Part shown: piece by piece, positions 19,876 to 34,318 of the stretch | How the letters are laid out: every line of letters begins with the position of its first letter | Numbering within the stretch: the first letter of the stretch is position 1 | From: Marispirochaeta sp. | Lineage (GTDB): Bacteria; Spirochaetota; Spirochaetia; JC444; Marispirochaetaceae | Reading direction: 5' to 3' | NCBI GenBank assembly: GCA_963676835.2 | Contig: CAXXFF010000002.1 | Coordinates: 1,536,001 to 1,600,000 of the forward strand | DNA length: 64,000 bases | Translations under genes and position numbers: made by a program | The notes under the pieces: generated by a model | Seen by the model: the letters and a program-made list of their open reading frames with translations, nothing else | The model's database searches: none | Told to the model about the DNA's origin: nothing

Positions 19876-20160
19876 GTGACAATCATCCTTCAGCAGTTTA
19901 CAGTAATACATCACTTCCTACTCGCATTCGCCCTGATAATGGAAGTTCCCATGATGATGATTCTTCTCTCCCGAACCCTCAAGTACCGGCTAAACAGACT
20001 CCTTAATATGGTTTTCGGATTGGTTCTGATTCTAATCCAGGCAGGTTCACTGGGCGTTGGAGGGGTTACACTTCACTATGTTTTTTTCAGCGAAATTGAG
20101 ATTTTTATCTGTCTGGTTATTGTTATAACCGCCGCAAGATGGAGACCGGAGCATGTGTAA
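19876..20160 (+). pseudogene. 5'-truncated DUF6326-like membrane protein
   Basis: LIMEVPMMMILLSRTLKYRLNRLLN resembles the C-terminal part of this family; N-terminal part and RBS appear absent. Confidence 0.45.
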
Positions 20161-20319
20161 AGACCTTATTTATCCATAAAATCTATAATCTCCAGTAAGT
20201 GTGCCGTGAGATCCATTCATTTTTTCTGCTGTTTTATTAATTACAGTATTCATTATTGATAGTTAACTCATTACACTCAAATTATTTAGTACCATGTCAA
20301 CTAAATTTTCTCAAAAAAT

Positions 20320-20370
20320 TTGACAAAGCATATCCCGTTACAAATAATTCTTAGTACGGATTCGTACTAA
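20320..20370 (+). promoter_or_regulatory. Sigma70-type promoter with downstream palindromic operator candidate
   Basis: TTGACA(20320)-17 bp-AATAAT(20343); perfect IR TTAGTACG-GATT-CGTACTAA at 20351-20370. Confidence 0.65.
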
Positions 20371-20401
20371 AAATCTATTTCTGTAGATCAGGAGGATTTG
20401 C

Positions 20402-21097
20402 ATGGACAAAGAACAAGAAAAGGTTATCGAGGAAGCTTGGAGCAAAGAGTCGATAATGGATGTAGAGATAAACATCATTGAACGGATGATTGGTTGTAGA
20501 ACCATTGAAGCCGTTGAAGCAGCAATAAGCTATGCACGCTTTCTGCGCTTGTCTGGACTGAACAATGATAATTATCCACTATTTTTACGCCTGCTTGAGG
20601 TGGAAAATCACTGGGTTATTGACTCCCTTATCGGAGACAAGGATCCCTTCCTGCTCCTCAGCTCAATTCACCCTAATAACTATGTGATTTTGAGCGCATT
20701 TAAACTGCTTACCAACTGGCACCCCGGGGGAATCTATCCGAAGACCCTGGCGATTATTCTGGGCGTTCTGCAGGCGAGCTACAGCTCTCCGAAAGACGGT
20801 TACAGGATCTACAACACCAGTATCAACGACGTTAACAACCTGGGAAAACACCTGAACAAGGAACTTGGACAGGATGATCCCAATAACCGTTGTATCCTGG
20901 ATATCCTCGACCGTCTTGGCTCTCTGGCCGGAACCACTGAGAATTCCAGTATCGAGCAGATGGCCCGTCAGTCTAACAGTATCAGAACCTTCTTCTTCGA
21001 CAAGAGGAAAAAGATGGAAGATATTATTCCTCAGGTACTGTTGGTCAAGTCTGACTACATCGCAAAAGAGATCGCCCCGGACAAGGTCTTCGCATAA
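20402..21097 (+). CDS. Uncharacterised helical protein, paralogue P1
   Basis: AGGAGG RBS; shares NYPLFL, DPF, HPGGIYPK, GY, NLGKHL, IP.VLL motifs with P2-P5. Confidence 0.85.
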   Translation: MDKEQEKVIEEAWSKESIMDVEINIIERMIGCRTIEAVEAAISYARFLRLSGLNNDNYPLFLRLLEVENHWVIDSLIGDKDPFLLLSSIHPNNYVILSAFKLLTNWHPGGIYPKTLAIILGVLQASYSSPKDGYRIYNTSINDVNNLGKHLNKELGQDDPNNRCILDILDRLGSLAGTTENSSIEQMARQSNSIRTFFFDKRKKMEDIIPQVLLVKSDYIAKEIAPDKVFA

Positions 21098-21115
21098 GGG
21101 CAAGGAGAGCTTAAT

Positions 21116-21907
21116 ATGAAAGAACTTTTCGAAAAGAAACAAACATGGACACAGACCGACATTGCAAGCATTGAATACAGCCTCTTAAAAGGACTTATGG
21201 GCTGTAGAACCATGGAAGCCGTAGAGTCAGCATTGACCTATGCAAACTATCTTAACAGCATTGGAATTACCAGCAGCAATTATCCCATATTTCTGAAGGT
21301 CCTCGGAGTGCGTAATCACTTTGTTATAGATGCCCTTCTGGGAACCCGGGATCCCTTCCTGTTTATGAGTTCCATTCAGCCCAACTACTTTATTGTGGCT
21401 ACCTGTTTCAGTTTTCTGGCGAAATATCATCCCGCAGAAATCTATTCAAAGACTCTTGGAATTATTCTGGGCGTTTTTCAGGCTGCCTTCAGCAATCCTC
21501 TGGATGGATACAACATTTATCCCCCTACAATTGCGGATGTTAACAGTCTTGGTAAGCACCTCATCGAAGAAAAAGGTCAGGATGACCTCTTAAACAGAAG
21601 TATCCTCGATATCCTGGATAAGATTTCCGAACTGGAAGGACAGGGTAAGGACGAAGAGATGGAAGATCTGGCAGTTCATGCTCATAACATCCGCAACAAC
21701 TTCTTCGATTCCACAAAACATCTTGTACAGGTTATACCCGATGTGCTGCTTAAATCCGAAGTAAACCTTGATCCCGAGGTTGAACCCCGTAAACAGCAGC
21801 CCCTCGCAGATGTGGAAAAGAGTGCTCCTAAGAAGGCGGCGGCAGCAGCGGCTCCCAAGGAAGCGGCCAAGGCAGCTCCTAAAGAAGACGAAAAGGCTGA
21901 AAAATAA
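21116..21907 (+). CDS. Uncharacterised helical protein, paralogue P2, with Ala/Lys/Pro-rich tail
   Basis: AAGGAG RBS; collinear with P1; tail APKKAAAAAAPKEAAKAAPKE. Confidence 0.85.
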   Translation: MKELFEKKQTWTQTDIASIEYSLLKGLMGCRTMEAVESALTYANYLNSIGITSSNYPIFLKVLGVRNHFVIDALLGTRDPFLFMSSIQPNYFIVATCFSFLAKYHPAEIYSKTLGIILGVFQAAFSNPLDGYNIYPPTIADVNSLGKHLIEEKGQDDLLNRSILDILDKISELEGQGKDEEMEDLAVHAHNIRNNFFDSTKHLVQVIPDVLLKSEVNLDPEVEPRKQQPLADVEKSAPKKAAAAAAPKEAAKAAPKEDEKAEK

Positions 21908-21917
21908 TCACACGTCA

Positions 21918-21954
21918 GCAGCAGGACTGGAGGCTACGCTGCCAGTCCTGTTGT
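21918..21954 (+). other. Intercistronic stem-loop without U-tract
   Basis: GCAGCAGGACTGG-N11-CCAGTCCTGTTGT between P2 and P3. Confidence 0.65.
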
Positions 21955-21971
21955 AGGTAAGGAGAGTACCA

Positions 21972-22652
21972 ATGATGCGATGGGAAGAATCTGGTTGGGA
22001 TCAGGAAGATCTTGATAAACTGGAGCTGTCCTTTCTCAACAGAATTTTCAAACTGGAAGAATCTCAGGGTGTTGCAGCTACTGTCACCTTTGCTCGGTAC
22101 TTGAATATGGTTGGAGTGAATCCGGATAATTATCCGATCTTCTTCAGGCTGATTGCCATGAGGAATCACTGGATTGTGGATGCTATTCTCGGAAAAACAG
22201 ATCCGGAAGAGTATTTTATCAATATCCAGCCAAATTTTTATATAATCCGGGAGTGTTTTCGGGGAATAACCGAAGTAAAACGCGGCGGTATCTATCCAAA
22301 GAGTCTGCAGATATACCTCGGTATTCTCAGGAGAACCTACAGTAATCCTCTTGAAGGATACCGTGTATTTCCTCTTGATACCGTTAACTGTAATAATCTG
22401 GGAAAACATCTTAATGAAGAAAAAGACCAGAAAGATCCTTTAAACCTGGATATTCTGACAATTCTTGACAAGGTTGCCTCCCTCATAAGTCCGGGTAAAC
22501 CCGAAAGCGATGAGGCGATTATCAGTGTGGCAACGCAGGCGAATAATATTCGCGGCAAATTCCTTGATATGACCAAGTCTCTCAATGAGGCTATCCCTGA
22601 TCTTTTGCTGGAAGTGGAAGATTATACGAAGCTGGAAATCAGTCCCGAATAA
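21972..22652 (+). CDS. Uncharacterised helical protein, paralogue P3
   Basis: AAGGAG RBS; NYPIFF, IQPNFY, GGIYPK, NNLGKHLNEEKDQ, NIRGKFLDMTKSL..IPDLLL. Confidence 0.85.
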   Translation: MMRWEESGWDQEDLDKLELSFLNRIFKLEESQGVAATVTFARYLNMVGVNPDNYPIFFRLIAMRNHWIVDAILGKTDPEEYFINIQPNFYIIRECFRGITEVKRGGIYPKSLQIYLGILRRTYSNPLEGYRVFPLDTVNCNNLGKHLNEEKDQKDPLNLDILTILDKVASLISPGKPESDEAIISVATQANNIRGKFLDMTKSLNEAIPDLLLEVEDYTKLEISPE

Positions 22653-22687
22653 TAACAAGACACTGCTGTACCAGCAGCACAACATTG

Positions 22688-22723
22688 AAAGCCCGGAGTG
22701 TAGTAGATGCTCCGGGTTTTTTT
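22688..22723 (+). terminator. Intrinsic terminator of the P1-P3 operon
   Basis: AAAGCCCGGAGT-loop-GCTCCGGGTTTTTTT. Confidence 0.8.
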
Positions 22724-22833
22724 ATGTCCATGTATTTTTGTTGCTGCGTCTGTTTCTTTAACTGTCGGGAGGAGAAGAGCAGCGCAGGTGTTAAATAGCA
22801 AGTTGAAATAAAGCTGAAGTTTTCGTGGGGTTC

Positions 22834-24906
22834 TTATTTTCTGAAGGGGCTGGTTACCCTGCGGATAACCTTTTTTACAAAATGTCTTAACCGGGCGAAA
22901 AAGCCCTGCTTTTCTGATATATCGGCGCTTGGCCGCGGTTGATCAACCGTCGGGGGCAATATGGAATCCTTATCTGCAAGCTCTTTTTCGGTGGTACTGC
23001 CTTGTTCAGTTATGTTTTCCGACAGATCCGGATTGGAGCCGCTGCCGGATACTGATTCAAGTCTACCCTGTCGCGTTGTTCCGGAATCTGAAGATTCCAT
23101 GCCCTTATCGGAGGCATCTGAAACACCTCCGGGAACTGTATCCAAATTCCGGTCTTCCCGCTTTTTTCCTGCCCGGTTATGCAGGTCTCCTGTAATTAAC
23201 TGATCTTCATCGGCAGTATGTTCTTCGGGATTCGTACGCTCTGTATTGATTTCGCCATTTTTATACGCGCTTCCCTCGCCTAATCCGCCTTCTCCTTCAA
23301 GGTCGAGAAACTCCCCGGTCAGATCCGGCGTTCCTTCGCCGAACAGATACTCAGCACCGGCTTCAGCTTTACGCTGGGCAAAGCCCGGGTGGCGGTAAGT
23401 CTCTCTGTCCTGCTCTCTGTATTCTTTATCAGGATTCTCTGCGGTGTTGCGCTTGGTATTTTCTTTCGGTTCTTCAGCCTTTTTGCCCGGTCTGTTTTGT
23501 GCCAGGGGTTTCGGCTGACCATTGTCTTGTGCACGTCGGTTCTTATCGATAGGCAGCATGGGAGCTGACCGCTTTTCTCTCTTCTGTTGAGTATTTTCGT
23601 TGCCCACCAGCCTGCCGGTAAGACCGCTGAAATGGTCCTGAAGCCGGCGAAGAACCTCTGCCACTCTGTTGCGGCGGGCTTCCTTATCGGTATCAGGTTC
23701 ATGGAGGCTTCCTGTTATTCCCGGAGTACTGCCTGAGTCTGCTGGTGTTTTCCCTGCAGTGTTTGGCGGAAGAGGTTCCAGTTCATCCTCCAGGGGCATA
23801 AGCAGTTCCGGTTCATCGGAGGTACTGTAGCCGGGCTTATTCTTTCTGGTTTTTCCGGGTAGCTTTTTTCCACGTATAAGCCGCTGAAATGCGGAAACTA
23901 CACGGCTGATAAAGCCTTCACGCTCCGGCGGAGGGGAGACCCCCTCGGGATAAAAGTTCCCGTCCGGTGATGGGGTATGCTGAACTCGTTCAACAGCAGG
24001 GCGGAGAAGGGGTACCGGCGTCTCCGGCGGTGTAAAGTCCTCTTCGCTGGAGATTGTTTCTCCACTGCGTATCCGTTTAAGAATATCAGAGAAGTCCCGT
24101 GCTTCCAGCCTTGCCTTGGCATGCTCATTAAGGTGGTCAATCAGCTCCTTCTCCGGGTGGATTTTTACTATGGTGTTAAGTGCTTCCTCTATGGATGCCA
24201 CTGATTTCGGATTCCTGGCTGTTTTTTGGGCTATTTCAAGAATAGTTGCCTTCTGTTCAGGATCGCCGTCACTTTCCGGTACCAGCTGGAGGAGTTCCAG
24301 GGTAATTACGGATACCGCATAGAGATCCCGCCAGGGCCCTTCAGGGTATTTTTCCGCAGAAAGATAATAGGGTTTTATTTTCTGCACATACCGGCCTTCC
24401 GGAAAAGCATCCACAAAGAGGGATACCCCGATGTTGCGCAGTTTTATACGTCCATATTCAATGTTCGCGTCGGGAACAACTATTGCCCGGGGAGAGAGAC
24501 TGTTGTGATGAATCCCCGCCTGTTCGAGGCTATAGAGTCCTCTCAGCAGAAAAATAATAATATTCATTACCTGGTCAAAGCTGACAATCAGTCCCTTATC
24601 CATCACCTGCCGCAGGGAGTATCCTTCTATCCAGTTAGAAGCCATAAACCGGGTATTTTCGTAGCTGCTGTATTCAAAAGGGGCAAGAATATAGGAGTTG
24701 TCAAAGTTATAAATACGGAAAAACAGATCCTCAAAACTCTGTAGAACCTTTGCCGGTGGGTCATTCTTGAGAAAGTTAAAAAATGAGATGGAAAAATTAT
24801 TGGGAGAATACATGGCCTTAGCCCGCCATGTAGAGAAAATTTCATTCTCTCCCAGATTTTCCTGCAGCAGATAACAGTTATTAATCGGTTTTCCAATAAA
24901 TTCCAT
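22834..24906 (-). CDS. Hanks-type pseudokinase with long disordered C-terminus and amphipathic helices
   Basis: Kinase-order motifs LGENEIFSTWRA, HNSLSPRAIVV, IKLRNIG, YLSAE, RDLYAVSVITLELL with catalytic residues replaced; start reset to ATG 24906. Confidence 0.75.
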   Translation of the reverse strand: MEFIGKPINNCYLLQENLGENEIFSTWRAKAMYSPNNFSISFFNFLKNDPPAKVLQSFEDLFFRIYNFDNSYILAPFEYSSYENTRFMASNWIEGYSLRQVMDKGLIVSFDQVMNIIIFLLRGLYSLEQAGIHHNSLSPRAIVVPDANIEYGRIKLRNIGVSLFVDAFPEGRYVQKIKPYYLSAEKYPEGPWRDLYAVSVITLELLQLVPESDGDPEQKATILEIAQKTARNPKSVASIEEALNTIVKIHPEKELIDHLNEHAKARLEARDFSDILKRIRSGETISSEEDFTPPETPVPLLRPAVERVQHTPSPDGNFYPEGVSPPPEREGFISRVVSAFQRLIRGKKLPGKTRKNKPGYSTSDEPELLMPLEDELEPLPPNTAGKTPADSGSTPGITGSLHEPDTDKEARRNRVAEVLRRLQDHFSGLTGRLVGNENTQQKREKRSAPMLPIDKNRRAQDNGQPKPLAQNRPGKKAEEPKENTKRNTAENPDKEYREQDRETYRHPGFAQRKAEAGAEYLFGEGTPDLTGEFLDLEGEGGLGEGSAYKNGEINTERTNPEEHTADEDQLITGDLHNRAGKKREDRNLDTVPGGVSDASDKGMESSDSGTTRQGRLESVSGSGSNPDLSENITEQGSTTEKELADKDSILPPTVDQPRPSADISEKQGFFARLRHFVKKVIRRVTSPFRK

Positions 24907-24919
24907 AGTATCCGCTGCT

Positions 24920-25849
24920 TCAGGTTTTCTTTTTATAATAGTCCAGGAAAGACTGACCCATGCCGGAATATCTGTCGTCAACTTCCTGCTGCTTTGCAGT
25001 ATCCCGCGGGGTAAACCACTTGCGAAAATACTCCACCAGGTATTCCATGCGGTACATCACATTGGCGGTAATTTTTTCCGCCACTTTTTTTTCATCATCA
25101 AATATGCTGCAGGAAAATACCTGAAGACAGATATCGTATATTTTCTCCCGGGATATGCTGGACATAAGGGTGAGTCTCTGGTCGAAGTCTTCGATGGAGA
25201 GGGCATTGAAATTGTCCGGTTTCAGCAGGGTCAGGAATCTGGTTTTCTCTTCACGGTGCCAGCCGAACTTGTCTTCCAGACCGAATATCTTCATGCCCTC
25301 TGTTTCAAGGTCTGCTTTGTTGTAATCTATTACCACGATAAAGGGTTCGCCGTCGGTATCGTGTTTGATCAGATAATTGTTGGGGTTGCGGTCCTCATCA
25401 AAGAAAAGCCAGCGGTTAAGCAGATCATTGGCCAGCATCTTAATGTAGGGCTCCTGAAGGTAGTTATAGCTTCCAATCTGCATGGCGCTTGGAATCTGTT
25501 TCGTGGCACGGTAGAGGGTCTCTCCGTGACGATAGACAACAGTTGGAGCAGCGGGAGTCTTCAGAAGAAAATCAATATAAAAGGCTATTTCCTGTATTTT
25601 ATGTTCCGGCCCTTCTGCTGCTGATATTTCCTTGAGCAGCCAGGAGGCGCCGTCATCATCCAGTGCGCCGGTATATCCCCGTACCTTTGCAAAGAAGGGA
25701 ACCAGTTCATCATCACCGATATCGGAAAGCTGAAGACTGCACATACTGGTAATAAGCTCTTCAATGGAAAGATCCAGATAGAGGGTCTCCCTGAAACCGG
25801 GATCCTTAACTGTGTCGGCAATCAGCATGTTGGTGTTTTTCTCAGACAT
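24920..25849 (-). CDS. HipA/PI3-4-kinase-like atypical kinase
   Basis: FFAK, QEIAF, catalytic-loop-like DEDRNPNNYLI and VVIDYN. Confidence 0.7.
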   Translation of the reverse strand: MSEKNTNMLIADTVKDPGFRETLYLDLSIEELITSMCSLQLSDIGDDELVPFFAKVRGYTGALDDDGASWLLKEISAAEGPEHKIQEIAFYIDFLLKTPAAPTVVYRHGETLYRATKQIPSAMQIGSYNYLQEPYIKMLANDLLNRWLFFDEDRNPNNYLIKHDTDGEPFIVVIDYNKADLETEGMKIFGLEDKFGWHREEKTRFLTLLKPDNFNALSIEDFDQRLTLMSSISREKIYDICLQVFSCSIFDDEKKVAEKITANVMYRMEYLVEYFRKWFTPRDTAKQQEVDDRYSGMGQSFLDYYKKKT

Positions 25850-26744
25850 AGTACTTCTCCGTCTTGGCTGTTACTGCATATTTCTCGCTAATGTTTCCGT
25901 TTTCAATCAGCAGGTATGGTCCCCGGGTCTGAAGATTGGTGTAGATAATTATGTGATTCTTTATGCCGATAATATCCCGCCAGATACCGGTAAGGTTGCC
26001 GGTATTCCACATGGGGTTGTGTCCCACAATAAAAGGTGTATCTTCGGGGAGATCCAGCTTGCTCAGCATCTTCCTGATATCATGCTCACCGTACTCTTTC
26101 AGATTCGGATTCCCCCGGAATTCATGGAGACGGTTCCACATAAGCTGACGATAGTAGTCTTCGTTGTCCTTGATATTAACCAGTTCATGGCGTGAACAGC
26201 CGTTCCTGATTGGCCCTGCATGGGTTATTGCATAGCCGTTACCGATTATAAACATGGGCAGGGCTTCAAAAAATTCCGAAACTGCCTCGACATATTCATC
26301 TCCCCTGTGCTCCTCCAGGTGAAGACGAAACTCAAGGCCCTGTTTTATGGCACTTTTTGCCAGCCGTTCTTCGAAGGTGTCATGATTCCCGCGGATATAG
26401 ATTAGGTTGTGTTTGTACTGCAGGATCAGGTTGAAAACCTCTTCAAGTACCTGCAGGGACGACGCCATCTCCCGCATTTCACCGGTCTGGTCATTATGAA
26501 CACCGTCGCCGATTATGATTATCCGTAATTTACCTGCATCAAGTTGTTTGCGGTTATCTTCATGCTCAATAATAGCTTTCAGGTTATCCAGTGCACCATG
26601 GAGGTCTCCGATTACTATAACCGGCCGTTTATCCTTTGAAAAATCGAGGAGTCCCCCCGGTCGGCCCTGGTCATCTTTGGCTCTGTCCGGGTTGCTCTCG
26701 ACAATTTTTATCACTTTGCGAATCTCAACGGGGCTGATACTCAT
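25842..26744 (-). CDS. Calcineurin-like (PPP-type) metallophosphoesterase
   Basis: GDLHG, GDGVHND, RGNHD, THAG, VGHNP; AGGAG RBS. Confidence 0.88.
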   Translation of the reverse strand: MSISPVEIRKVIKIVESNPDRAKDDQGRPGGLLDFSKDKRPVIVIGDLHGALDNLKAIIEHEDNRKQLDAGKLRIIIIGDGVHNDQTGEMREMASSLQVLEEVFNLILQYKHNLIYIRGNHDTFEERLAKSAIKQGLEFRLHLEEHRGDEYVEAVSEFFEALPMFIIGNGYAITHAGPIRNGCSRHELVNIKDNEDYYRQLMWNRLHEFRGNPNLKEYGEHDIRKMLSKLDLPEDTPFIVGHNPMWNTGNLTGIWRDIIGIKNHIIIYTNLQTRGPYLLIENGNISEKYAVTAKTEKYYV

Positions 26745-26759
26745 GGTTAATCTCCTGGA

Positions 26760-27470
26760 TTAATTATTAGAGATTTTTCCGGCGAAATCAAAAAAATCTT
26801 CCGCCGGCCGTACCTCCCTGGATTCACGGTTCAATCTTACCAGGAGAACTTCTGGAATAGTGTCTTTCAGTGACTTTGTGTTATCGAAGAATGCATCCCG
26901 CATATTGAAGGCCAGACGGGAAATACCCGCTTTATGAGGTGTGTAATCCATCTGGCCCAGCTTTGTCATCCTGTCGAAAATCTCAAGTATAAGCGAGTTG
27001 GTTGCATCTAACTGATCTTTATCTTCATCCAGGAATTTTCCTATATTCTGCAGGTCTGCTACTTCAATCGGGTAGATGTCATAGCCTGTATCCGGTTTGT
27101 GGTAGGTATATTCAACGGTGCCGAGAACCGCCAGCAGTACTTTTTCATAGATCTGTCCCGGATGCCAGGATGAGATGAGCTCCAGGGCATGGCGGATAAG
27201 GTATGCATTCGGGCGTATGGATGAAAACAGGAGCCTAGGGTCCCGGTCTTCAAGCAGTTCATCGACAACCCATTTGTTGTTGGTCTCAATAATTTTTAAA
27301 AAGAGTAGATAGTTCCTTGATGTTATTCCCACATGGCCAAGATATTTGGCGAATGCCATGCTGGAACCCACCTGTATGGGAGAGGATACACCAAAGATTC
27401 CTTCCAGTATGATCTGTCGATTCTGCATGATAATTTCGTCGAAATCAAACGACAGGTAATCACCGCCCAT
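26760..27470 (-). CDS. Uncharacterised helical protein, paralogue P4
   Basis: AKYLGHVGITSRNYLLFL, DPRLLFSSIRPN, WHPGQIYEK, NIGKFL, FFDNTKSLKDTIPEVLL. Confidence 0.85.
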   Translation of the reverse strand: MGGDYLSFDFDEIIMQNRQIILEGIFGVSSPIQVGSSMAFAKYLGHVGITSRNYLLFLKIIETNNKWVVDELLEDRDPRLLFSSIRPNAYLIRHALELISSWHPGQIYEKVLLAVLGTVEYTYHKPDTGYDIYPIEVADLQNIGKFLDEDKDQLDATNSLILEIFDRMTKLGQMDYTPHKAGISRLAFNMRDAFFDNTKSLKDTIPEVLLVRLNRESREVRPAEDFFDFAGKISNN

Positions 27471-27604
27471 TAATATCCCCAAAAAATCCTTCTGTTCCCT
27501 ATCATATCCAAATAGGAGTATATAAAATAAGTATCATGGATATCATTCCTGATAGCAAGATATGGAATTCACTATTTTTCCGGGCTTTCCGGTAAGGTAT
27601 ATCA

Positions 27605-29440
27605 GTGAATAACAGCCCTTCCTGGGAGCAGCAGCTCGAAGACATCTACCAGTTTGCCCGGCTTCACCACTGGGTAAGCCAGCTGAATGAGCTGATTGAG
27701 CAGTTTGTCGGTGAGTTCTCACAAAATTATAATGAAATCTCCCGCAAGATACATGCCAGTCATCTGTCAGGGCAGCAGAACCCGGCGGACAGTCTTGTTT
27801 CTCTTGTTTTGCTGCATAAATTTCAGACACCGGTCCTCGAAATTACCGAGAAGCTGTTTCATCTGCTTTATGGAAAGCTTGACAGTAAGGATCAGCAGTT
27901 TCTTATTCTCCATTTTTTCAAAGGAATGCTCCCTCTTTCCACTGATGACAGTCATGAGATAATAATCCGCTCATTTATCTCCTATAAAAGGGCAATATTT
28001 CGTGGAATGCAGATTGAAAATCTTGTTTCCAACGTGAATCCCGCAGAAACAGCTCTGTTTTTTACGGTGCTGATCTGCAGAGTAGATGTCCACACCCAGA
28101 ACCGTGCTTTAATAAACCTGCTTCTCTACAGAATTGAGGCGAGGCTCCCGGAAAATGTCCTTCAGGGGGTATTGGTGTACCTCAAGAAGCTCAGACAGGT
28201 TATATACGAGGTCTATACCCGGGGAGAGAAGGTTCTCTCCGATGAGTTGAATATTTCCGAAGAGCCTGATCTGCTTCAGATCGAAGATGATGCCCTCATG
28301 GATACCGCCGGTGTGTATGAGGCGGAAGAAGAGCCCCCTCATGATCTGTCTTTACCGGAAAAAGCGGCTGGATCGACGGCATCCGGTAAATCCGGCAGTT
28401 CAAGTCTTGAGCCTTCGAATGATGATTCAGGTGGACGGACTGCCGGGGAGAAGCCCGGAGGCATGGATAACCCCCGGGAAACAAGTGTCAGATCGCCGGA
28501 AAGTGACATGGCTGCTGATCGTGGGCGGGGAGAACCCACGAGGGGGCAGGAACATGTCCGCCAGGGGGAAGGCTTTGCGGCGGCTGCTTTTGCACAGGAT
28601 ACGACAAACCTGCAGACCCATGGGTCTGCGGATAATACGGGTTCTTCGGGAGATTTTGATGGATTAACCGCATCCGTAAATGGTCCAGCCTCCGGAGCAC
28701 TGGACGGAGCGGTTCTCCAGGAACCGGAAACCGGTGACAACAATATATTTCAGGTGGCGTTTAACCGGAGCATCGAAAAGCTCCTTGATCTTCTCGGGGA
28801 TGCTGGAGAGCTTCCAGTCGGGGAAGAGGCCCTTCTTAACGATGAAACAGACATGAAGTCAGAGGGTGGAACCGGGGAAAGTAACATGGAAAAGCCCCAT
28901 GCCCACAGAGCTGAGCAGAAGGGGGCTCCTGCAGCTTCGGGTCCTGCACGGTCAGGACAGAAAAAGCGTTTCGGCATTGGAATCCTTATTTCCCTGGGCG
29001 CTATCGTACTGCTGTCTGTTGTTCTTTTTGTTGCCCTCGGACAAGGGCACAGTTCCGAGCCTGTCGCGGCCGCTCCGGCGCCGGCGGTAACTGCCCCTGC
29101 TGCAGAGCCGAAACCTGTTCTTCCGGAGATTGTCAGTGAACTGCGGCAGTTGCCTGATGAGCAGACTTCATCTGTAGCATCGGAAGGTATCGGGGGAAAC
29201 AGTATCAATCCCGATATCAAGGTGGAAGATGGTAACTTTCTCTGGCGTGTGCAGGAGGGGGAGTCGGTCTGGAAGATGTATATCTTTGCCAGAGGGGGCT
29301 CTGGAATCTTTAAACTGTCCGTCGATGTAAGCTGGGGAGATTTTCTTGAAATGTTCAGAAATCTTAATCCCATGCTGCGCAATCCGGATGTAATTTATCC
29401 CGACAATCTGCTGCGGCTCCCTGGAAACGATGCTATATAA
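27605..29440 (+). CDS. Single-pass membrane protein with C-terminal LysM-like domain
   Basis: Helical N-domain, acidic low-complexity linker, TM FGIGILISLGAIVLLSVVLFVALG, PA linker, WRVQEGESVW...NPMLRNPDVIYPDNLLRLP. Confidence 0.75.
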   Translation: MNNSPSWEQQLEDIYQFARLHHWVSQLNELIEQFVGEFSQNYNEISRKIHASHLSGQQNPADSLVSLVLLHKFQTPVLEITEKLFHLLYGKLDSKDQQFLILHFFKGMLPLSTDDSHEIIIRSFISYKRAIFRGMQIENLVSNVNPAETALFFTVLICRVDVHTQNRALINLLLYRIEARLPENVLQGVLVYLKKLRQVIYEVYTRGEKVLSDELNISEEPDLLQIEDDALMDTAGVYEAEEEPPHDLSLPEKAAGSTASGKSGSSSLEPSNDDSGGRTAGEKPGGMDNPRETSVRSPESDMAADRGRGEPTRGQEHVRQGEGFAAAAFAQDTTNLQTHGSADNTGSSGDFDGLTASVNGPASGALDGAVLQEPETGDNNIFQVAFNRSIEKLLDLLGDAGELPVGEEALLNDETDMKSEGGTGESNMEKPHAHRAEQKGAPAASGPARSGQKKRFGIGILISLGAIVLLSVVLFVALGQGHSSEPVAAAPAPAVTAPAAEPKPVLPEIVSELRQLPDEQTSSVASEGIGGNSINPDIKVEDGNFLWRVQEGESVWKMYIFARGGSGIFKLSVDVSWGDFLEMFRNLNPMLRNPDVIYPDNLLRLPGNDAI

Positions 29441-30002
29441 GCAGTCCGTGAGGAATAACCGACTCCAGTCCTTTGGTGGTATCCAGGGCGGCATCCCTGA
29501 TTTTCGCCGCAACCAGAGAAACTCCGCCATATTCACGTGAGGGAAGGGCTGTAACAGCTTCCATTATCCCGGTGATAAACCGCTCCGCCGTCTCATCCTG
29601 CAAAAGCAGATATTTTGCTGTGTGGTAAAGCTCCTGGGCTGTCAGGGGATGTATTTTCATGCCGTTTGCAGGATGTGTGTAAACAGATGCCAGAGTACCG
29701 GTACAGGCATAAACAACCCTCCGGTCTGTTTCTCCGGCTCTCCGGCTGCTGAGCAGATCAAGAATCGATGCCACCAGCCTTCTGTCAGGTGTTACAGGCG
29801 AAAAGAGTGACTCCGGTGTTCTTTTTTTAAAAACAGCATCCAGAACTTCTTTATCGTTCAGGGACAATACCTTGAGGTACATGTGCAGGGTTTCAGCATT
29901 TACGGGCAGATTGGACAGGTATGCTGCAAAGCCTCTGGCGCCTTCTATGGCTGCCTGTGTTCCCGATTCAAGCATCTGATTAAGCAGGTCCGACTGATTC
30001 AT
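29433..30002 (-). CDS. Diverged paralogue P5 of the uncharacterised family
   Basis: FAAYLSNL..N...YLKVL, TPESLFS, HPANGMKIHP, KIRDAALDTTKGLESVIPHGLL; AAGGAG RBS before ATG 30002. Confidence 0.75.
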   Translation of the reverse strand: MNQSDLLNQMLESGTQAAIEGARGFAAYLSNLPVNAETLHMYLKVLSLNDKEVLDAVFKKRTPESLFSPVTPDRRLVASILDLLSSRRAGETDRRVVYACTGTLASVYTHPANGMKIHPLTAQELYHTAKYLLLQDETAERFITGIMEAVTALPSREYGGVSLVAAKIRDAALDTTKGLESVIPHGLLI

Positions 30003-30190
30003 ATATGCTCCTTCCGGCCCAATCATAGTCTATCCCCGGAGATATTGCAAAAAAACTCTAATTCATACTATTCCGGATCTGTAAAGAAAAAAGTTTAAAA
30101 AAACGAAGAAAGTACTTGATAATTTTTTATCGATAAATTATTATCGTATTATCAATTCTGATTAGGGATTTATTCCCGGGAGCGAGAGCG

Positions 30191-30604
30191 ATGAATAAAT
30201 TATCGTATCTGGTTATTACAGTAGTTTTAGTTCTGGCGGCTGCAGGATGCAGCACCCGGCCCTTTACACCTGGCAGTTACATTGGAACAGCACCGGGTAT
30301 GCTCGGCAATGATGTTGTTGTCGATGTTTTGGTAGATGCGTGGAGTATCAAATCCATCAAGATTATTCGATATAACGAGCCCTTGAAGGCATCGAGTGTA
30401 GCTTTTGAGAGTATTCCGAAAGCAATTATTGAGGGACAGAGCCTTGATGTAGCTCCGGTTCCTGGTGCACTTGGATCAAGCAGGGCAATTATCAATGCAG
30501 TAGCAAATGCACTGCATAGCGCAAGTTCTGATTATGGACTTGCAGGTTCAGAAAGGTTTTTTCCGGCAGCTTCTGCCGATGGGACAGTGGCTGTTCTGGA
30601 ATAA
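30191..30604 (+). CDS. FMN_bind-domain lipoprotein (atypical)
   Basis: Lipobox AAAGC; FTPGSYIGTAPG...IPKAIIEGQSLDV..VPGALGSSRAIINAV. Confidence 0.78.
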   Translation: MNKLSYLVITVVLVLAAAGCSTRPFTPGSYIGTAPGMLGNDVVVDVLVDAWSIKSIKIIRYNEPLKASSVAFESIPKAIIEGQSLDVAPVPGALGSSRAIINAVANALHSASSDYGLAGSERFFPAASADGTVAVLE

Positions 30605-30697: not shown

Positions 30698-31231
30698 TCA
30701 GACATCAGCCATAATATCTTTATTCATTCCAACAAAGGTTTCCACCATAATTGTTGTTGCCTCATCAATCAGCTCGGACTGCTCTTCGGCAGAGAGGCTT
30801 TCGGGGCAGGCGACAATGGTGAACACAGGTGATGTTTTGCTGATTGGACTTTTACTGAAGCTGAGACATTTGTCCGTTTCAGCATTCTCGGCCATTACGC
30901 AGCCTTCCCGGGTAATGGACGCAGGAACATCATTACGGAAACCGATACTGGTGTAATCAATCTTACGCTTCCCATCCACAAGGGGGCCGATGGATACAAG
31001 TGATCCTGAATAGGTCAGAGCCAGGGCTCCGCGCTCGTCGTCAGCGGCAAAGCTTCCGACTTCATCCATACCCATCTCGATCATTGATTCATCAAAGGCC
31101 TCTTTTTTCTCGATCCATCCGGCACCCAGCCGTGCAATGGTATCCTCGTCCGCTTCCAGGCCGAAAGACTCGGCAACTTCGTTAAGGTGTTTGTTGATAA
31201 TTTCAGGCAGTTCAGTCATGGTAACGTCCAT
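30698..31231 (-). CDS. Acidic hypothetical protein
   Basis: GGAGG RBS before ATG 31231; 177 aa; ALALTYSGSLVSIGP. Confidence 0.75.
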   Translation of the reverse strand: MDVTMTELPEIINKHLNEVAESFGLEADEDTIARLGAGWIEKKEAFDESMIEMGMDEVGSFAADDERGALALTYSGSLVSIGPLVDGKRKIDYTSIGFRNDVPASITREGCVMAENAETDKCLSFSKSPISKTSPVFTIVACPESLSAEEQSELIDEATTIMVETFVGMNKDIMADV

Positions 31232-31344
31232 GGTATCCTCCGTTATTTCTTGAAATAAGTTACCTAATAGATATATCCTTTGATCCGTTTGCGGTATGTG
31301 CCGTTTGGTATGTTTTTTCAGATAAGCGGTGGTATAAAATAAGT

Positions 31345-31920
31345 ATGTCAGTTTCAAGCAGCAGATCCGGTTCCCGCTGGTTCCTGAAAGGACGCCTTGC
31401 CGACGGGTCTCCCTGGACAATTCCCATCCGGGATCCCCGTTTTCTCATAGGACGCTCTGCGGAATGCAGTCTGATCCTCGATTCCATGGAAGTTTCCCGG
31501 CGTCATGCCTCGATCAACACGGCAGAAGGCAGTCTATATATCAACGATCTCGGCAGTCAGAATGGAACTTTCCTGAATGGTGCAGCCCTTGATTCCACCC
31601 GTCCGCTGGAAAACCGGGATATTCTGAAAATAGGCAATCATGAGTTTATGGTATGCGAAACTGAGAAAAAACGGGTGGAAGCGGTTCAAACCATTGTTGA
31701 GGAAGCGTGCAGTAACAGCTTTGCCGCACGGTTCGGCCTGTCTGCCCGGGAAGAAGAGATTCTATACCTGCTTATTCATGGCGACTCAATGCAGGAGATT
31801 GCACGGAAGCTTTATATTTCTCCGGGGACAGCCAAGAATCATGTCCTGAAGATCTATAAAAAGACAGACTGTCATTCAAAGATAGAAATTGCAAATGCCT
31901 ACCGGGAATATACGGGATAG
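31345..31920 (+). CDS. FHA domain plus LuxR-type HTH transcriptional regulator
   Basis: IGRS, VSRRHA, DLGSQNGTFLNG; LSAREEEIL...IARKLYISPGTAKNHV. Confidence 0.9.
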   Translation: MSVSSSRSGSRWFLKGRLADGSPWTIPIRDPRFLIGRSAECSLILDSMEVSRRHASINTAEGSLYINDLGSQNGTFLNGAALDSTRPLENRDILKIGNHEFMVCETEKKRVEAVQTIVEEACSNSFAARFGLSAREEEILYLLIHGDSMQEIARKLYISPGTAKNHVLKIYKKTDCHSKIEIANAYREYTG

Positions 31921-31930
31921 TCTCCGGGAT

Positions 31931-34051
31931 TTATTCGTTGCCGCAGTGGTCAAACTCCATGCCGGTAAGCTCGCTTATGGTATGCATACTGGTCTGAGAA
32001 ATCTCCGCAATATGGCCCAGTCTCTGGTTGAGATCATCCACAGCGCTGTTTATGGAAACGGCAGACTCGTCAACTATACTATTCAGCTCTCTGAGCTCGT
32101 AAATTGCTTCTACTGTCTGCCTGCTTCCGGCGGACATCTCATTCAACTGTCCTATCATCTCATGGAGAGCTCCGGTGAGTTCCATGAAGCCGTTAATCAT
32201 AGTCCCGTATATATGCTCTGAATTCTCCGTACTTTCCACGGTATGACGAACTTCACTGGTTATTTTTGAAAGTGCATCTTCCACGTTCTGGGTGCTTTCT
32301 CCGGCAGCTTCCGCAAGTTTCTTTATCTCTTCGGCGACCACACTGAATCCTTTTCCAGCTTCGCCGGCGTGGGCTGCTTCAATTGAGGCGTTCATTGAGA
32401 GGATATTGGTTCTTGAGGCAACGTTCTCAATCATCTCCATCATTTCACCAATCTGGGTAATATGATTTTCGGTCTGGGTAATTGCCTGTATGGTCTCTTT
32501 GATCTCTTCTTCACTGGTCTTGGCCATATTGGCCATTTCTGAAATCGATGCATCCCGTTCTGAAGAGATTCTTGAGATATTCTGAATCCCGGCGGTCATC
32601 TCTTCTATGGCAGAGGAGAATTCAACCAGCGCGGCGGTCTGATTGTGTACACTGTTCACCACTCTGCCTGTGGCCTGCTGGACCTGCTGAATAATATGAT
32701 TCAGGTTGGTGATCATGCAGTAGATGGTCTCATACTCTTTTGTAACAGCAGCCACTGCCTTCTCACGGTAATCGTGACAGTTTCCAGGCTTATTCAGGCC
32801 GTTGAAAATGGCTTCTGCCATAGCCTCGCAGCTGTTGTATCCACAGGAGGCACACTGCAGATAATCCTCTTCCTTTGTTTTTTTCATTTCCTTGTAGACT
32901 GCATCAAGCTGTTTGCTGTCCGGAATCTTGTAATTCTTCAAGAGGGCTGATTTATCCTGATAGCCCCGGTGGTAGAGTTCTTTATACCAGTACTTGTCCA
33001 GTACCTTGTTGACCAGCTTTTTCCGCTTCTTTTCAGATATATTCCTGGTAGAATAATCTGCCTTGGCTTCCTTCATGCGCTTTTCAATGTAATATTCAAC
33101 TTCATCAATCGCCTTTTCCTGATTCAGGGTTCCCGGGCCGCCGTTACAGCCCATTTCGCAGTTCAGACAGTCGATGAGCAGAGGGTTCATTCCCTTTTTA
33201 AGCAGGTCCGGTAATTTTTTCATATATTCATAGACAATATCCGGCCCCTCTATACGGCGGATACGGCTCATAATTTCCGGTGTTTCGCGCTCCACGGTAC
33301 GCATCAGTCCTCCCGGGCTTGAGAAGAGTACCGCTCGCTCGGCCGGAGGATTGATAAAGTCCTCTTCCGGATATTTTGCCAGGTTAATATTGTTGGTTTC
33401 GATATATTTTGCGAAGGACTTATAGGTAACATTAAAGTCGCCAATGCCGGTGTCGGCGAATTCCCTCTTTTTTGCCAGGCAGGGGGAGAGGGCAAGAATT
33501 TTCATATGACTGTATTCGGGGTAATACTCCCGGATCATCTTCATTATATGCAGCATGGGGCTGTCTGCAGGTGCCAGGTAGGGAATAAGTTCCGGCTGGA
33601 AGGTTTCAATATAAGAGACGATTGCAGGACAGGGCTGGGCGATCACCATTTCCGGCTGCGTATCGTTGATGTAATTAACATAGGACTTTACGGTCAGCTC
33701 TGCGCCGAAACTTACGTCGAAGATTGCCTTGACGCCCAGGGACTTAACCCAGCCGAAAAAGTTCTTATACTGCCCGGGAAAATTGGCGGCCACTGCGGGA
33801 GCTGCTATGGCAAGAACCTCTTCCCCCTTTTTCAGGGACTCCATCATCAGGTCAAAGTCGTCGCAGATATTGCGGGCGTCGTGCTGGCAGGCGGTTATGC
33901 ATTTTCCGCAGCCGATGCAGAGATCGTGGTTTATTTCCACATGGTTACCGCTGCCGTTCATACAGGATTTTACCGGGCATGCGGATATGCACATATGGCA
34001 GTTAACGCATTTATCTGGATCAACACTGATAACCTGGGGCACCGTAAACAT
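31931..34051 (-). CDS. Soluble chemoreceptor: ferredoxin, [FeFe]-hydrogenase H-cluster-like domain, FeS domain, MCP signalling domain (group C2-type sensory hydrogenase)
   Basis: Two CxxCxxCxxxC motifs; AQPCPA, SPCLAKKRE, DCLNCEMGCNGG; CASCGYNSC; NASIEAAHAGEAGKGFSVVAEEIKKLA; no TM. Confidence 0.88.
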   Translation of the reverse strand: MFTVPQVISVDPDKCVNCHMCISACPVKSCMNGSGNHVEINHDLCIGCGKCITACQHDARNICDDFDLMMESLKKGEEVLAIAAPAVAANFPGQYKNFFGWVKSLGVKAIFDVSFGAELTVKSYVNYINDTQPEMVIAQPCPAIVSYIETFQPELIPYLAPADSPMLHIMKMIREYYPEYSHMKILALSPCLAKKREFADTGIGDFNVTYKSFAKYIETNNINLAKYPEEDFINPPAERAVLFSSPGGLMRTVERETPEIMSRIRRIEGPDIVYEYMKKLPDLLKKGMNPLLIDCLNCEMGCNGGPGTLNQEKAIDEVEYYIEKRMKEAKADYSTRNISEKKRKKLVNKVLDKYWYKELYHRGYQDKSALLKNYKIPDSKQLDAVYKEMKKTKEEDYLQCASCGYNSCEAMAEAIFNGLNKPGNCHDYREKAVAAVTKEYETIYCMITNLNHIIQQVQQATGRVVNSVHNQTAALVEFSSAIEEMTAGIQNISRISSERDASISEMANMAKTSEEEIKETIQAITQTENHITQIGEMMEMIENVASRTNILSMNASIEAAHAGEAGKGFSVVAEEIKKLAEAAGESTQNVEDALSKITSEVRHTVESTENSEHIYGTMINGFMELTGALHEMIGQLNEMSAGSRQTVEAIYELRELNSIVDESAVSINSAVDDLNQRLGHIAEISQTSMHTISELTGMEFDHCGNE

Positions 34052-34318
34052 AGCAAATCTCCTATTCAAATCAAGCGTAGTAAAATGCCTCTGGGTTTGC
34101 AAATCCCGGGGAACTTTTGCTGCTGAAAATCAGTGTTTGGTAATGCTTACATATATGGTAAACTAAAGGTGTATGAAAACCGTGATACGCCGGAGGCTCT
34201 GGTGGATCTGTTGGAAGACCTGCCGCTCTGAATTATCTGTATTATCCTACCATTCAATCCCCGTATCTCTTGAAATTTTTGAAACCGGGTAAGCCCGGGA
34301 AAAGGTGGTTAAAAGCAT

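Follow-up and report, generated by a model that had tools for sequence, protein, structure and literature searches.

A spirochaete gene module built on an unclassified family of helical proteins, with a conserved core pair and linked putative kinase and phosphatase genes

Introduction

A window of 64,000 nucleotides from Marispirochaeta sp. (NCBI GenBank assembly GCA_963676835.2, contig CAXXFF010000002.1, positions 1,536,001 to 1,600,000 of the forward strand) contains five paralogous genes, here called P1 to P5, with several other genes between them. What does a spirochaete do with five diverged copies of a protein of no recognized family, and do the genes that separate the copies belong with them? 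An earlier note on this DNA had described the five paralogues and had suggested that they are non-redundant subunits of one assembly. The findings described below identify a real and strongly selected gene module based on a family that is absent from all libraries searched. The genes between the paralogues, which did not appear in the earlier note (i.e., those for a kinase, a metallophosphoesterase, a pseudokinase and a transmembrane (TM) protein with a LysM-like domain), belong to the same system.

Results

Homology of P1 to P5

The five open reading frames were present at the coordinates claimed for them, and their products align end to end. P1 (20402..21097, + strand), a protein of 231 residues and 11 helices, is the slowest-evolving member and forms the core of the family together with P2 (21116..21907, + strand), a protein of 263 residues with a variable Lys/Ala-rich tail. 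The accessory paralogues are P3 (21972..22652, + strand, 226 residues) and P4 (26760..27470, - strand), which heads the phosphatase-kinase unit and was assigned an ATG start in a reading frame that opens earlier, with TTG at 27482. P5 (29433..30002, - strand) is a short divergent paralogue of 189 residues without helix 1 and the tail; a further ATG occurs upstream at 30026, and the start at 30002 was favoured because linked orthologues measure 189-194 residues. As had been claimed, the family members occupy three transcription units, namely P1-P3 on the + strand, P4-phosphatase-kinase-pseudokinase on the - strand and P5 alone on the - strand; a fourth unit, on the + strand, is the gene for the TM protein.

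Pairwise identity was 35-47% among P1-P4 and 22-29% between P5 and the others, P5 being nearest to P4. All 10 pairs exceeded 300 shuffles each (z 23-107), with z values of 56-107 among P1-P4 and of 23-42 for pairs that included P5, the alignment scores of which (140-233) compare with a top shuffled score of 63. Eight sequence patterns had been given as common to all five proteins. These were matched in full (8/8) by P1-P4 once one gap was widened from four to four-or-five residues but were literally matched by P5 in no case (0/8), and the membership of P5 therefore rests on the alignment scores. The absence of TM segments from P1-P5 was borne out by maximum 19-residue hydropathy values of 0.8-1.3, as opposed to 3.0 for the neighbouring TM protein. 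No family copies beyond P1-P5 were found by tblastn in the 4.43-Mb genome.

Searches of curated libraries (Pfam, NCBIfam, PHROGs and PADLOC) placed none of the five proteins above the cut-off in any library, and no enzyme family was matched. Among 52 family members compared with Pfam, the best E value was 0.0065, for a single stray match, and Arm/HEAT repeat profiles matched none of the 52. Sequence searches of PDB with the queries labelled A1, A2 and A4 gave nothing below E 0.1. A HMMER search of 1.84 billion representatives yielded 222 matches, mostly of equal length; neither a named family nor a bridge to one was noted among the 150 of these that were listed, and 30 homologous proteins looked up by name were all 'hypothetical' or 'uncharacterized'. 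A P5-like protein used as query retrieved itself and nothing else, owing to a limit of the word index, and the best match of P1 in the ESM Atlas (0.87) was of low recognition and offered no usable lead. One P5-like sequence, P0265, consists of a P5-like N-terminal part and a long unrelated region and may be a frameshift or an assembly chimera. In the literature, no paper that describes the family or the module was found. Passages of 10.1101/2025.07.04.663154, the Table S6 of which lists conserved unknown spirochaete families and might include this one, contain no mention of it, nor do passages of 10.64898/2026.09.18.752743. The module corresponds to no described system known to us; its mechanism is one that we infer.

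Distribution and gene linkage of the module

The family was present in 16 of 401 sampled Spirochaetota genomes (7/336 among the high-quality ones) and the kinase in 12, all of them within the 16 family carriers; the four carriers in which the kinase was not found are drafts of 70-530 contigs that are 83-94% complete. Among relatives, 9 of 41 carry the family, including only two of the five other genomes of the genus, and two of those without it are 97-98% complete. The nearest named relative is a Marispirochaeta metagenome-assembled genome (MAG) with a P1 that is 99% identical, and a cultured carrier exists in Sediminispirochaeta smaragdinae DSM 11293 (ADK79998.1 / UniProt E1RCB8).

Linkage was evident from 75 genome loci (taken from the best 80 of 156 matches), of which 72 are titled spirochaetes and three have no taxon. 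In the 42 loci of at least 15 kb, kinase and phosphatase genes were both present in 40, the pseudokinase gene in 35, four family copies in 34 and the TM protein gene in 16. Gene order is shuffled among loci while the gene set stays together. P5 is fast-evolving, optional and often unlinked. The part of the earlier note that called the copies non-redundant agrees with these results, as each of P1-P5 has a clade of orthologues to itself that spans families and classes, and the rates of the five differ.

Variants of the module were also noted. Part or all of it is duplicated in tandem in loci L032, L096, L097, L101 and L123, and in L032 both P1 copies and both P2 copies give identical scores and identities. 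One lineage (L035:8823-10242 and L037:6611-8044) has a tandem P3-like pair, with P4 and the enzymes on another contig. A DNA search of the five congeners revealed no empty site, the flanks being non-syntenic where the module is absent.

Conservation of P1 and P2

In comparisons for which synonymous sites were saturated (pS 0.68-0.91), identity was 87-92% for P1 and 79-87% for P2 but lower for P3, P4 and the enzymes (approximately 49-74%) and lowest for the pseudokinase and TM protein (25-40%). Recent horizontal transfer was rejected as the cause of the high identities because synonymous sites were saturated. Identities of P1, L2 and RpoA, in that order, to the corresponding proteins of five genomes were 89/64/70, 84/64/57, 74/67/67, 67/71/62 and 64/63/54, so that P1 was more conserved than RpoA in all five genomes and more conserved than L2 in four. 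The P1 of one genome outside the class was closer (84%) than that of one inside (67%), which suggests an old lateral transfer. Positions conserved in at least 90% of sequences made up about half of each P1 or P2 group as opposed to a quarter in P3 and P4.

These results bear on whether the module might serve in anti-phage or stress-triggered defence, with the kinase as toxic effector and the paralogues as sensors or antitoxins. The patchy presence of the family, the varying flanks, the tandem duplication of whole modules, module relationships that cut across host classes and the HipA-type fold predicted for the kinase would all suit such a role. However, conservation above that of RpoA is unlike that of an arms-race gene, the flanks in the window are metabolic and regulatory genes, and searches of phages, plasmids and IMG/VR revealed no member of the family. 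Moreover, PADLOC matched none of P1-P5 and neither the kinase nor the TM protein, giving only generic kinase models for the pseudokinase and one weak short match (E 0.005) for the phosphatase. A defence function is for these reasons considered very unlikely.

The P1-P2 pair outside the module

Searches with divergent family members led to metagenome loci (best 80 of 148; only 26 are at least 8 kb) in which the family occurs as an exact tandem pair (68/80) or a single copy (12/80). Profiles of the kinase, phosphatase and TM protein matched at none of these 80 loci and the pseudokinase profile at two, at contig ends; as so few of the loci are long, copies of these genes may lie elsewhere in the same genomes. 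Labels among 120 listed close relatives of the pair's first gene included Vicinamibacteria (two) and Rhodothermales (one, on a 2-kb contig). By label, the pair thereby extends to one phylum besides the spirochaetes and doubtfully to a second, and the identity between spirochaete and Vicinamibacteria-labelled copies of the P1-P2 pair is approximately 60%. The first gene of the pair grouped with P1 and the second with P2, both by FastTree (0.90 and 0.95) and, with moderate support, by IQ-TREE (80/84 and 88/92) applied to 32 rows (i.e., 35 rows minus three with long branches). A separate duplication as the origin of the pair-only genes was rejected (approximately unbiased test, p 0.003). As judged from these trees, the P1-P2 tandem is an ancient and fixed core pair.

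In one spirochaete MAG, P1 and P2 are fused in frame without a linker to encode a protein of 442 residues (L065:10001-11329), next to genes for an AraC-like protein (identified by eye) and the TM protein; no P3, P4, other family member or kinase was found in this MAG, the completeness of which is not stated.

The neighbours of the pair differ from those of the module. A small two-helix protein with approximately 45 conserved residues and no Pfam match is encoded beside the pair in 48 of the 80 loci (L135-L214), and a second type of tiny companion carries a long Lys/Ala-rich tail. Neither the genome of the window (best E 0.058) nor loci L001-L134 (best E 0.094) yielded the tiny companion. A ParA-type ATPase gene lies near the pair in 10 of the 80 loci. 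In the longer of these, the downstream partner of ParA has a peptide of basic character at the N-terminus and a helical domain at the C-terminus, with a variable linker between them, and ends in the small domain of the tiny companion. One conserved arrangement of vent/peat type (L206:1237-11291) comprises genes for an HDOD protein, a SpoIIE-type phosphatase, a hydrolase, ParA and its small partner, an RsbW-like ATPase, a tiny protein, the P1-P2 pair, an unknown protein of 360 residues and two STAS-like proteins. In the other branch of pair-type loci, L144 and L149 have a GGDEF gene flanking the pair, and L164 a gene for a receiver protein that carries a long non-Pfam tail.

Codon adaptation and charge

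Codon adaptation in the genome of the window, based on 22 seed genes of the ribosomal-protein operon (median percentile 98), was highest for P1 and P2 (percentiles 93 and 95), followed by P3 (80), the kinase (67), P5 (58), the phosphatase (47) and P4 (40). In a weaker comparison across genomes (51 loci, with six likely duplicates skipped), codon adaptation exceeded that of the enzymes for P1 in 36 and for P2 in 35, as compared with 22 for P3 and 23 for P4. Tails of P2 and P4 are long and variable, and those with a net charge of at least +3 made up 88% of 64 pair-type P2, 33% of 75 spirochaete P2 and 53% of 58 P4, whereas the tails of P1 and P3 measure only about six residues. Median charges of -3 to -10 make the folded cores acidic, and each of the five window proteins carries a net negative charge.

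A pair that is abundant by the codon proxy, has tails that lean basic and is adjoined by ParA in one subgroup might suggest a nucleoid-associated, histone-like P1-P2 heterodimer that binds DNA by means of these tails and is tuned in its compaction by phosphorylation. The acidic cores, the net negative charge of the window proteins and the short P1 and P3 tails argue against this, and a TM anchor and absence from three of five congeners fit it poorly. A nucleoid function is accordingly judged to be decidedly unlikely.

Predicted fold of P1

The AlphaFold2 model of P1 (pLDDT 91.4, pTM 0.86) is confident and all-alpha, has an ordered C-terminal tail and resembles a generic helical solenoid of the Armadillo (ARM)-like kind. 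ARM-like chains dominated a VIA fold search of 48,161 representatives (best Z 8.0, rmsd 6.0, 172 aligned residues), with rmsd values of 6-8 and Z values that lie within the background for helical models. No specific match was obtained in PDB (Foldseek, E 0.07 or worse), VIA or BFVD, a result that does not imply novelty of the fold. A likeness to retroviral capsid proteins in length and helix count was dropped because such proteins were absent from the fold-search matches.

Two residues, K149 and D200, are invariant across all clades and six more (N57, Y58, N69, Q157, N162 and R195) nearly so. In a mean-field analysis of 710 rows (95-188 effective sequences), covariation was noted for the pairs Q157-R195 and N162-R195; several pairs that join the tail to the N-terminus (z 3.4-4.8) are near noise and, without coordinates, are compatible with contacts either within or between subunits. 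These polar residues are what would be expected if the paralogues were separate small adaptors or ligand binders, at most a P1-P2 dimer, in which a conserved patch binds a ligand or performs cryptic chemistry, and ARM-like folds commonly serve as adaptors. Conservation, however, spans about half of the P1 and P2 residues rather than a single pocket, and neither an enzyme fold nor an enzyme family was matched, so that this explanation seems unlikely.

Kinase, phosphatase, pseudokinase and TM protein

The kinase gene (24920..25849, - strand) encodes a protein of 309 residues without a sequence match to any member of Pfam or PDB. Its model (pLDDT 90.8) was matched in VIA to PI4KIIalpha (Z 15.4, rmsd 4.0, 232 aligned residues), CtkA (Z 14.3), Fam20 (14.0), MavQ (13.0), CotH (12.3) and HipA (12.0). 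The nine best rows were all from the PI3/4K-HipA-Fam20-CotH group (Z 12-15.4), as opposed to Z values of 8.6 or less for Rio/Hanks-type kinases, and the protein is assigned from its model to this fold group as an atypical kinase. LepB_N and PI3_PI4_kinase were neighbours in the ESM Atlas, both at 0.93. Among 35 rows, K73 was present in at least 90% and D153, N158 and D175 were invariant; the catalytic residues (K73, D153-R-N-P-N-N158 and D175) look intact. From motif likeness, we take these to be the ATP-site Lys, the catalytic-loop Asp and Asn and the metal-binding Asp. Ser or Thr residues specific to kinase-bearing P1 and P2 are S140, T196 and S217 in P1 and S88 and T115 in P2.

The adjacent gene (25842..26744, - strand) encodes a calcineurin-like metallophosphoesterase of 300 residues (Metallophos PF00149, E 4e-12, above cut-off), the five metal-binding motifs (GDLH, GDxxHxD, GNHD, HAG and GHNP) of which are kept across 75 rows. 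The next protein (22834..24981, - strand, likely start Met near 24906) has a Hanks-type fold and a long low-complexity tail, and matched Pkinase below the cut-off (E 2e-4) while one orthologue matched above it. Asp occurs at the HRD position in one and at the DFG position in two of 53 aligned rows, and the protein is accordingly predicted to be a catalytically dead pseudokinase.

Rather than acting on proteins, the kinase and phosphoesterase might write and erase a phosphorylated lipid mark, with the paralogues as ENTH/VHS-like readers that coat a membrane domain. The first rank of PI4KIIalpha, the match to MavQ and the ESM Atlas neighbours agree with such a scheme, as do ENTH (Z 7.5) and VHS (Z 6.7) among the fold matches of P1. 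The protein kinases CtkA, Fam20, CotH and HipA nevertheless lie within approximately 1-3 Z units, the ENTH and VHS scores are at background for helical proteins, and the pair occurs without the kinase at all 80 pair-type loci, only 26 of which reach 8 kb. A lipid mark is therefore held to be improbable.

The TM protein (27605..29440, + strand, 611 residues), the gene for which diverges from P4, is a candidate envelope anchor. It comprises a conserved N-terminal domain of approximately 210 residues, a long variable linker, one TM helix near residue 460 and a C-terminal domain that resembles LysM by eye, with NCBIfam matches (E 0.004 and 0.13) that are both below cut-off. Pfam gave no match for it or for any of six orthologues. 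The N-terminal domain was rejected as a sixth paralogue (hhalign probability 0.1).

Other features of the window

A near-consensus sigma70-type promoter-like site (20320..20348, + strand, 11/12 matches) lies upstream of P1 and is the best of 21 such sites in 20100-30300, where 14.5 +/- 3.6 are expected by chance; it is followed by an AGGAGG ribosome-binding site (20390-20395, + strand). As judged by eye and without a count, similar -35 boxes and AGGAGG or GGAGG precede P1 at the majority of 29 related loci. A perfect 8-bp inverted repeat at 20351-20370, just past the promoter-like site, occurs in its long form only once in the genome. It was rejected as a conserved operator, because the nearest relative has a changed version and inspection by eye did not reveal it in other loci. 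Between the convergent units, a terminator-like hairpin with a U run (22687..22723, + strand, -21.4 kcal/mol) had a z value of -7.2, and none of 200 shuffles was equally stable.

Beyond P5, an acidic protein (30698-31420, - strand) without a Pfam or NCBIfam match has two paralogues in the genome (35% identity) and adjoins an FHA-LuxR regulator (31345-31920). It was rejected as a member of the module, its best match standing beside the module in only one other locus (L049). The gene at 31931-34102 (- strand) encodes a 4Fe-4S/FeFe-hydrogenase-like domain fused to an MCP signalling domain and is a candidate cytoplasmic hydrogen or redox chemoreceptor. A separate cluster on contig C1 of the same genome (L124:5940-12709) contains a distant metallophosphoesterase paralogue (approximately 22%) and a Hanks kinase with intact-looking motifs, together with proteins that by eye resemble vWA-FHA and membrane FHA proteins and two paralogues of the acidic protein, one with an end that appears HU-like at the C-terminus. 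This cluster resembles a TerY-P-type kinase-phosphatase-vWA module.

Discussion

The reading that we prefer, and to which we assign about an even chance, is that of a heteromer of P1 and P2 to which minor subunits are added, with regulation by phosphorylation, anchorage to the envelope and the logic, though not the parts, of a stressosome. P1 and P2 would constitute an obligate two-subunit building block, blocks would polymerise into a large and abundant cytoplasmic assembly, and P3, P4 and P5 would be its minor components. The adjacent kinase and phosphatase, by adding and removing phosphate, would switch the assembly, and the membrane protein would hold it at the envelope, the whole serving as a localized signalling hub with paralogous scaffold subunits, one dedicated kinase and one resetting phosphatase. 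The binding of P1 to P2, their higher-order assembly, the paralogues as substrate of the kinase and the anchoring are the parts that we infer.

Several observations lead in this direction. Whole-protein conservation, the fixed pair, predicted abundance and the fusion suggest an obligate and polymer-like P1-P2 unit, the surface of which would for the most part be engaged. P3 and P4, which are less abundant by the same prediction, evolve faster, occur with the enzymes and are missing with them in the fusion genome and the pair-type loci, may be minor subunits that recruit these enzymes. An envelope anchor in one subtype and ParA with a partner in another point to a large object that needs placement. 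Signalling genes surround each subtype examined, and a phospho-regulated signalling assembly is therefore preferred. As for the suggestion that the paralogues are subunits of one assembly, it gains indirect support from the tandem order of P1 and P2, which is fixed, from their extreme conservation and codon adaptation and from the P1-P2 fusion, but the idea of five comparable subunits needs to be revised to a P1-P2 core with P3 and P4 as additions and P5 as an option.

A number of findings weigh against this interpretation. Covariation was too shallow, with so few effective sequences, for inter-subunit contacts to be read from it, and the support for the P1-type clade is only moderate and its grouping does not resolve when the three long-branch rows are kept (35 rows). 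The fusion comes from a single MAG and may reflect a deletion or a misassembly. Ser and Thr residues specific to kinase-bearing P1 and P2 are few, with almost none conserved in P3 and P4, and the kinase, the top structural match of which is a lipid kinase, could act on lipid. The TM protein is present in only 16 of the 42 long loci and its LysM likeness is below threshold. ParA may position partner-switching proteins instead of the pair. Lastly, the signal from codon adaptation is of modest size, and loci that are related to one another do not count as independent.

A bolder form of the proposal, offered as a tentative possibility, is that P1 and P2 serve as alpha/beta-type subunits in a bacterial polymer or organelle not yet described, with an ARM-like fold (i.e., a filament, lattice or shell) shared by spirochaetes and acidobacteria. 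Minor paralogues would nucleate or cap it, the PI3/4K-fold kinase and PPP-type phosphatase would assemble and disassemble it, and a peptidoglycan anchor or a ParA motor, according to lineage, would position it.

Comparison with known systems sharpens these proposals. In the stressosome (PMC9765535, PMC3556497), paralogous scaffold subunits are held in one cytoplasmic complex that a dedicated kinase phosphorylates, a logic also treated in PMC11821858. The module, as known from its genes, likewise has paralogues, a kinase and a phosphatase (compare RsbR paralogues, RsbS, the kinase RsbT and the phosphatase RsbX), and one pair-type subgroup sits among STAS, RsbW-like and SpoIIE genes. In contrast, P1-P5 have no STAS match, although the library did detect STAS beside pair-type loci, and the P1 model is all-alpha. 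RsbT is a GHKL kinase and RsbX a PP2C phosphatase, whereas the module kinase has a predicted PI3/4K-HipA fold and the phosphatase is calcineurin-like. Stacked helices may be shared by the P1 model with Armadillo/HEAT scaffolds (the ARM domain of MEILB2/HSF2BP, CNOT9, beta-catenin and the formin DID), but P1 scores at the helical background, belongs to no repeat family and has a domain fixed at approximately 230 residues with an ordered C-terminal tail.

The kinase shares its predicted fold and catalytic-loop pattern with PI4KII, CtkA, MavQ, LepB_N and HipA/HipT of the PI3/4K-HipA-Fam20-CotH group. No HipB-like partner was seen at this locus, and the kinase is tied to the helical family in 12 of 12 genomes. 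Operons of the PknB/PstP type combine a Hanks kinase with a phosphatase, and the module also has kinase and phosphatase genes in one unit; here, however, the Hanks-fold protein is predicted to be dead, the candidate for activity is an atypical kinase, and the enzymes are accompanied by four or five paralogues from a family without an assigned place. ParA ATPases with partners position large cargos according to PMC11407121, and the ParA-type ATPase followed by a small partner in one pair-type subgroup recalls the McdA/McdB-type ParA/MinD pairs treated there, but ParA is absent from the module of the window and the cargo of the pair would be neither a known microcompartment nor a known chemoreceptor array.

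A pair that can be more conserved than RpoA and L2 and yet is lacking in the majority of genomes and in all libraries searched points to a cellular machine that has escaped recognition. The core, two proteins that are small and soluble, lends itself to direct tests, for which a cultured carrier is available. If it is indeed a phospho-regulated heteropolymer of helical solenoids, this machine would extend the known supramolecular structures of bacteria by a new class and would place an intracellular PI3/4K-fold kinase, paired with a pseudokinase, in a physiological context.

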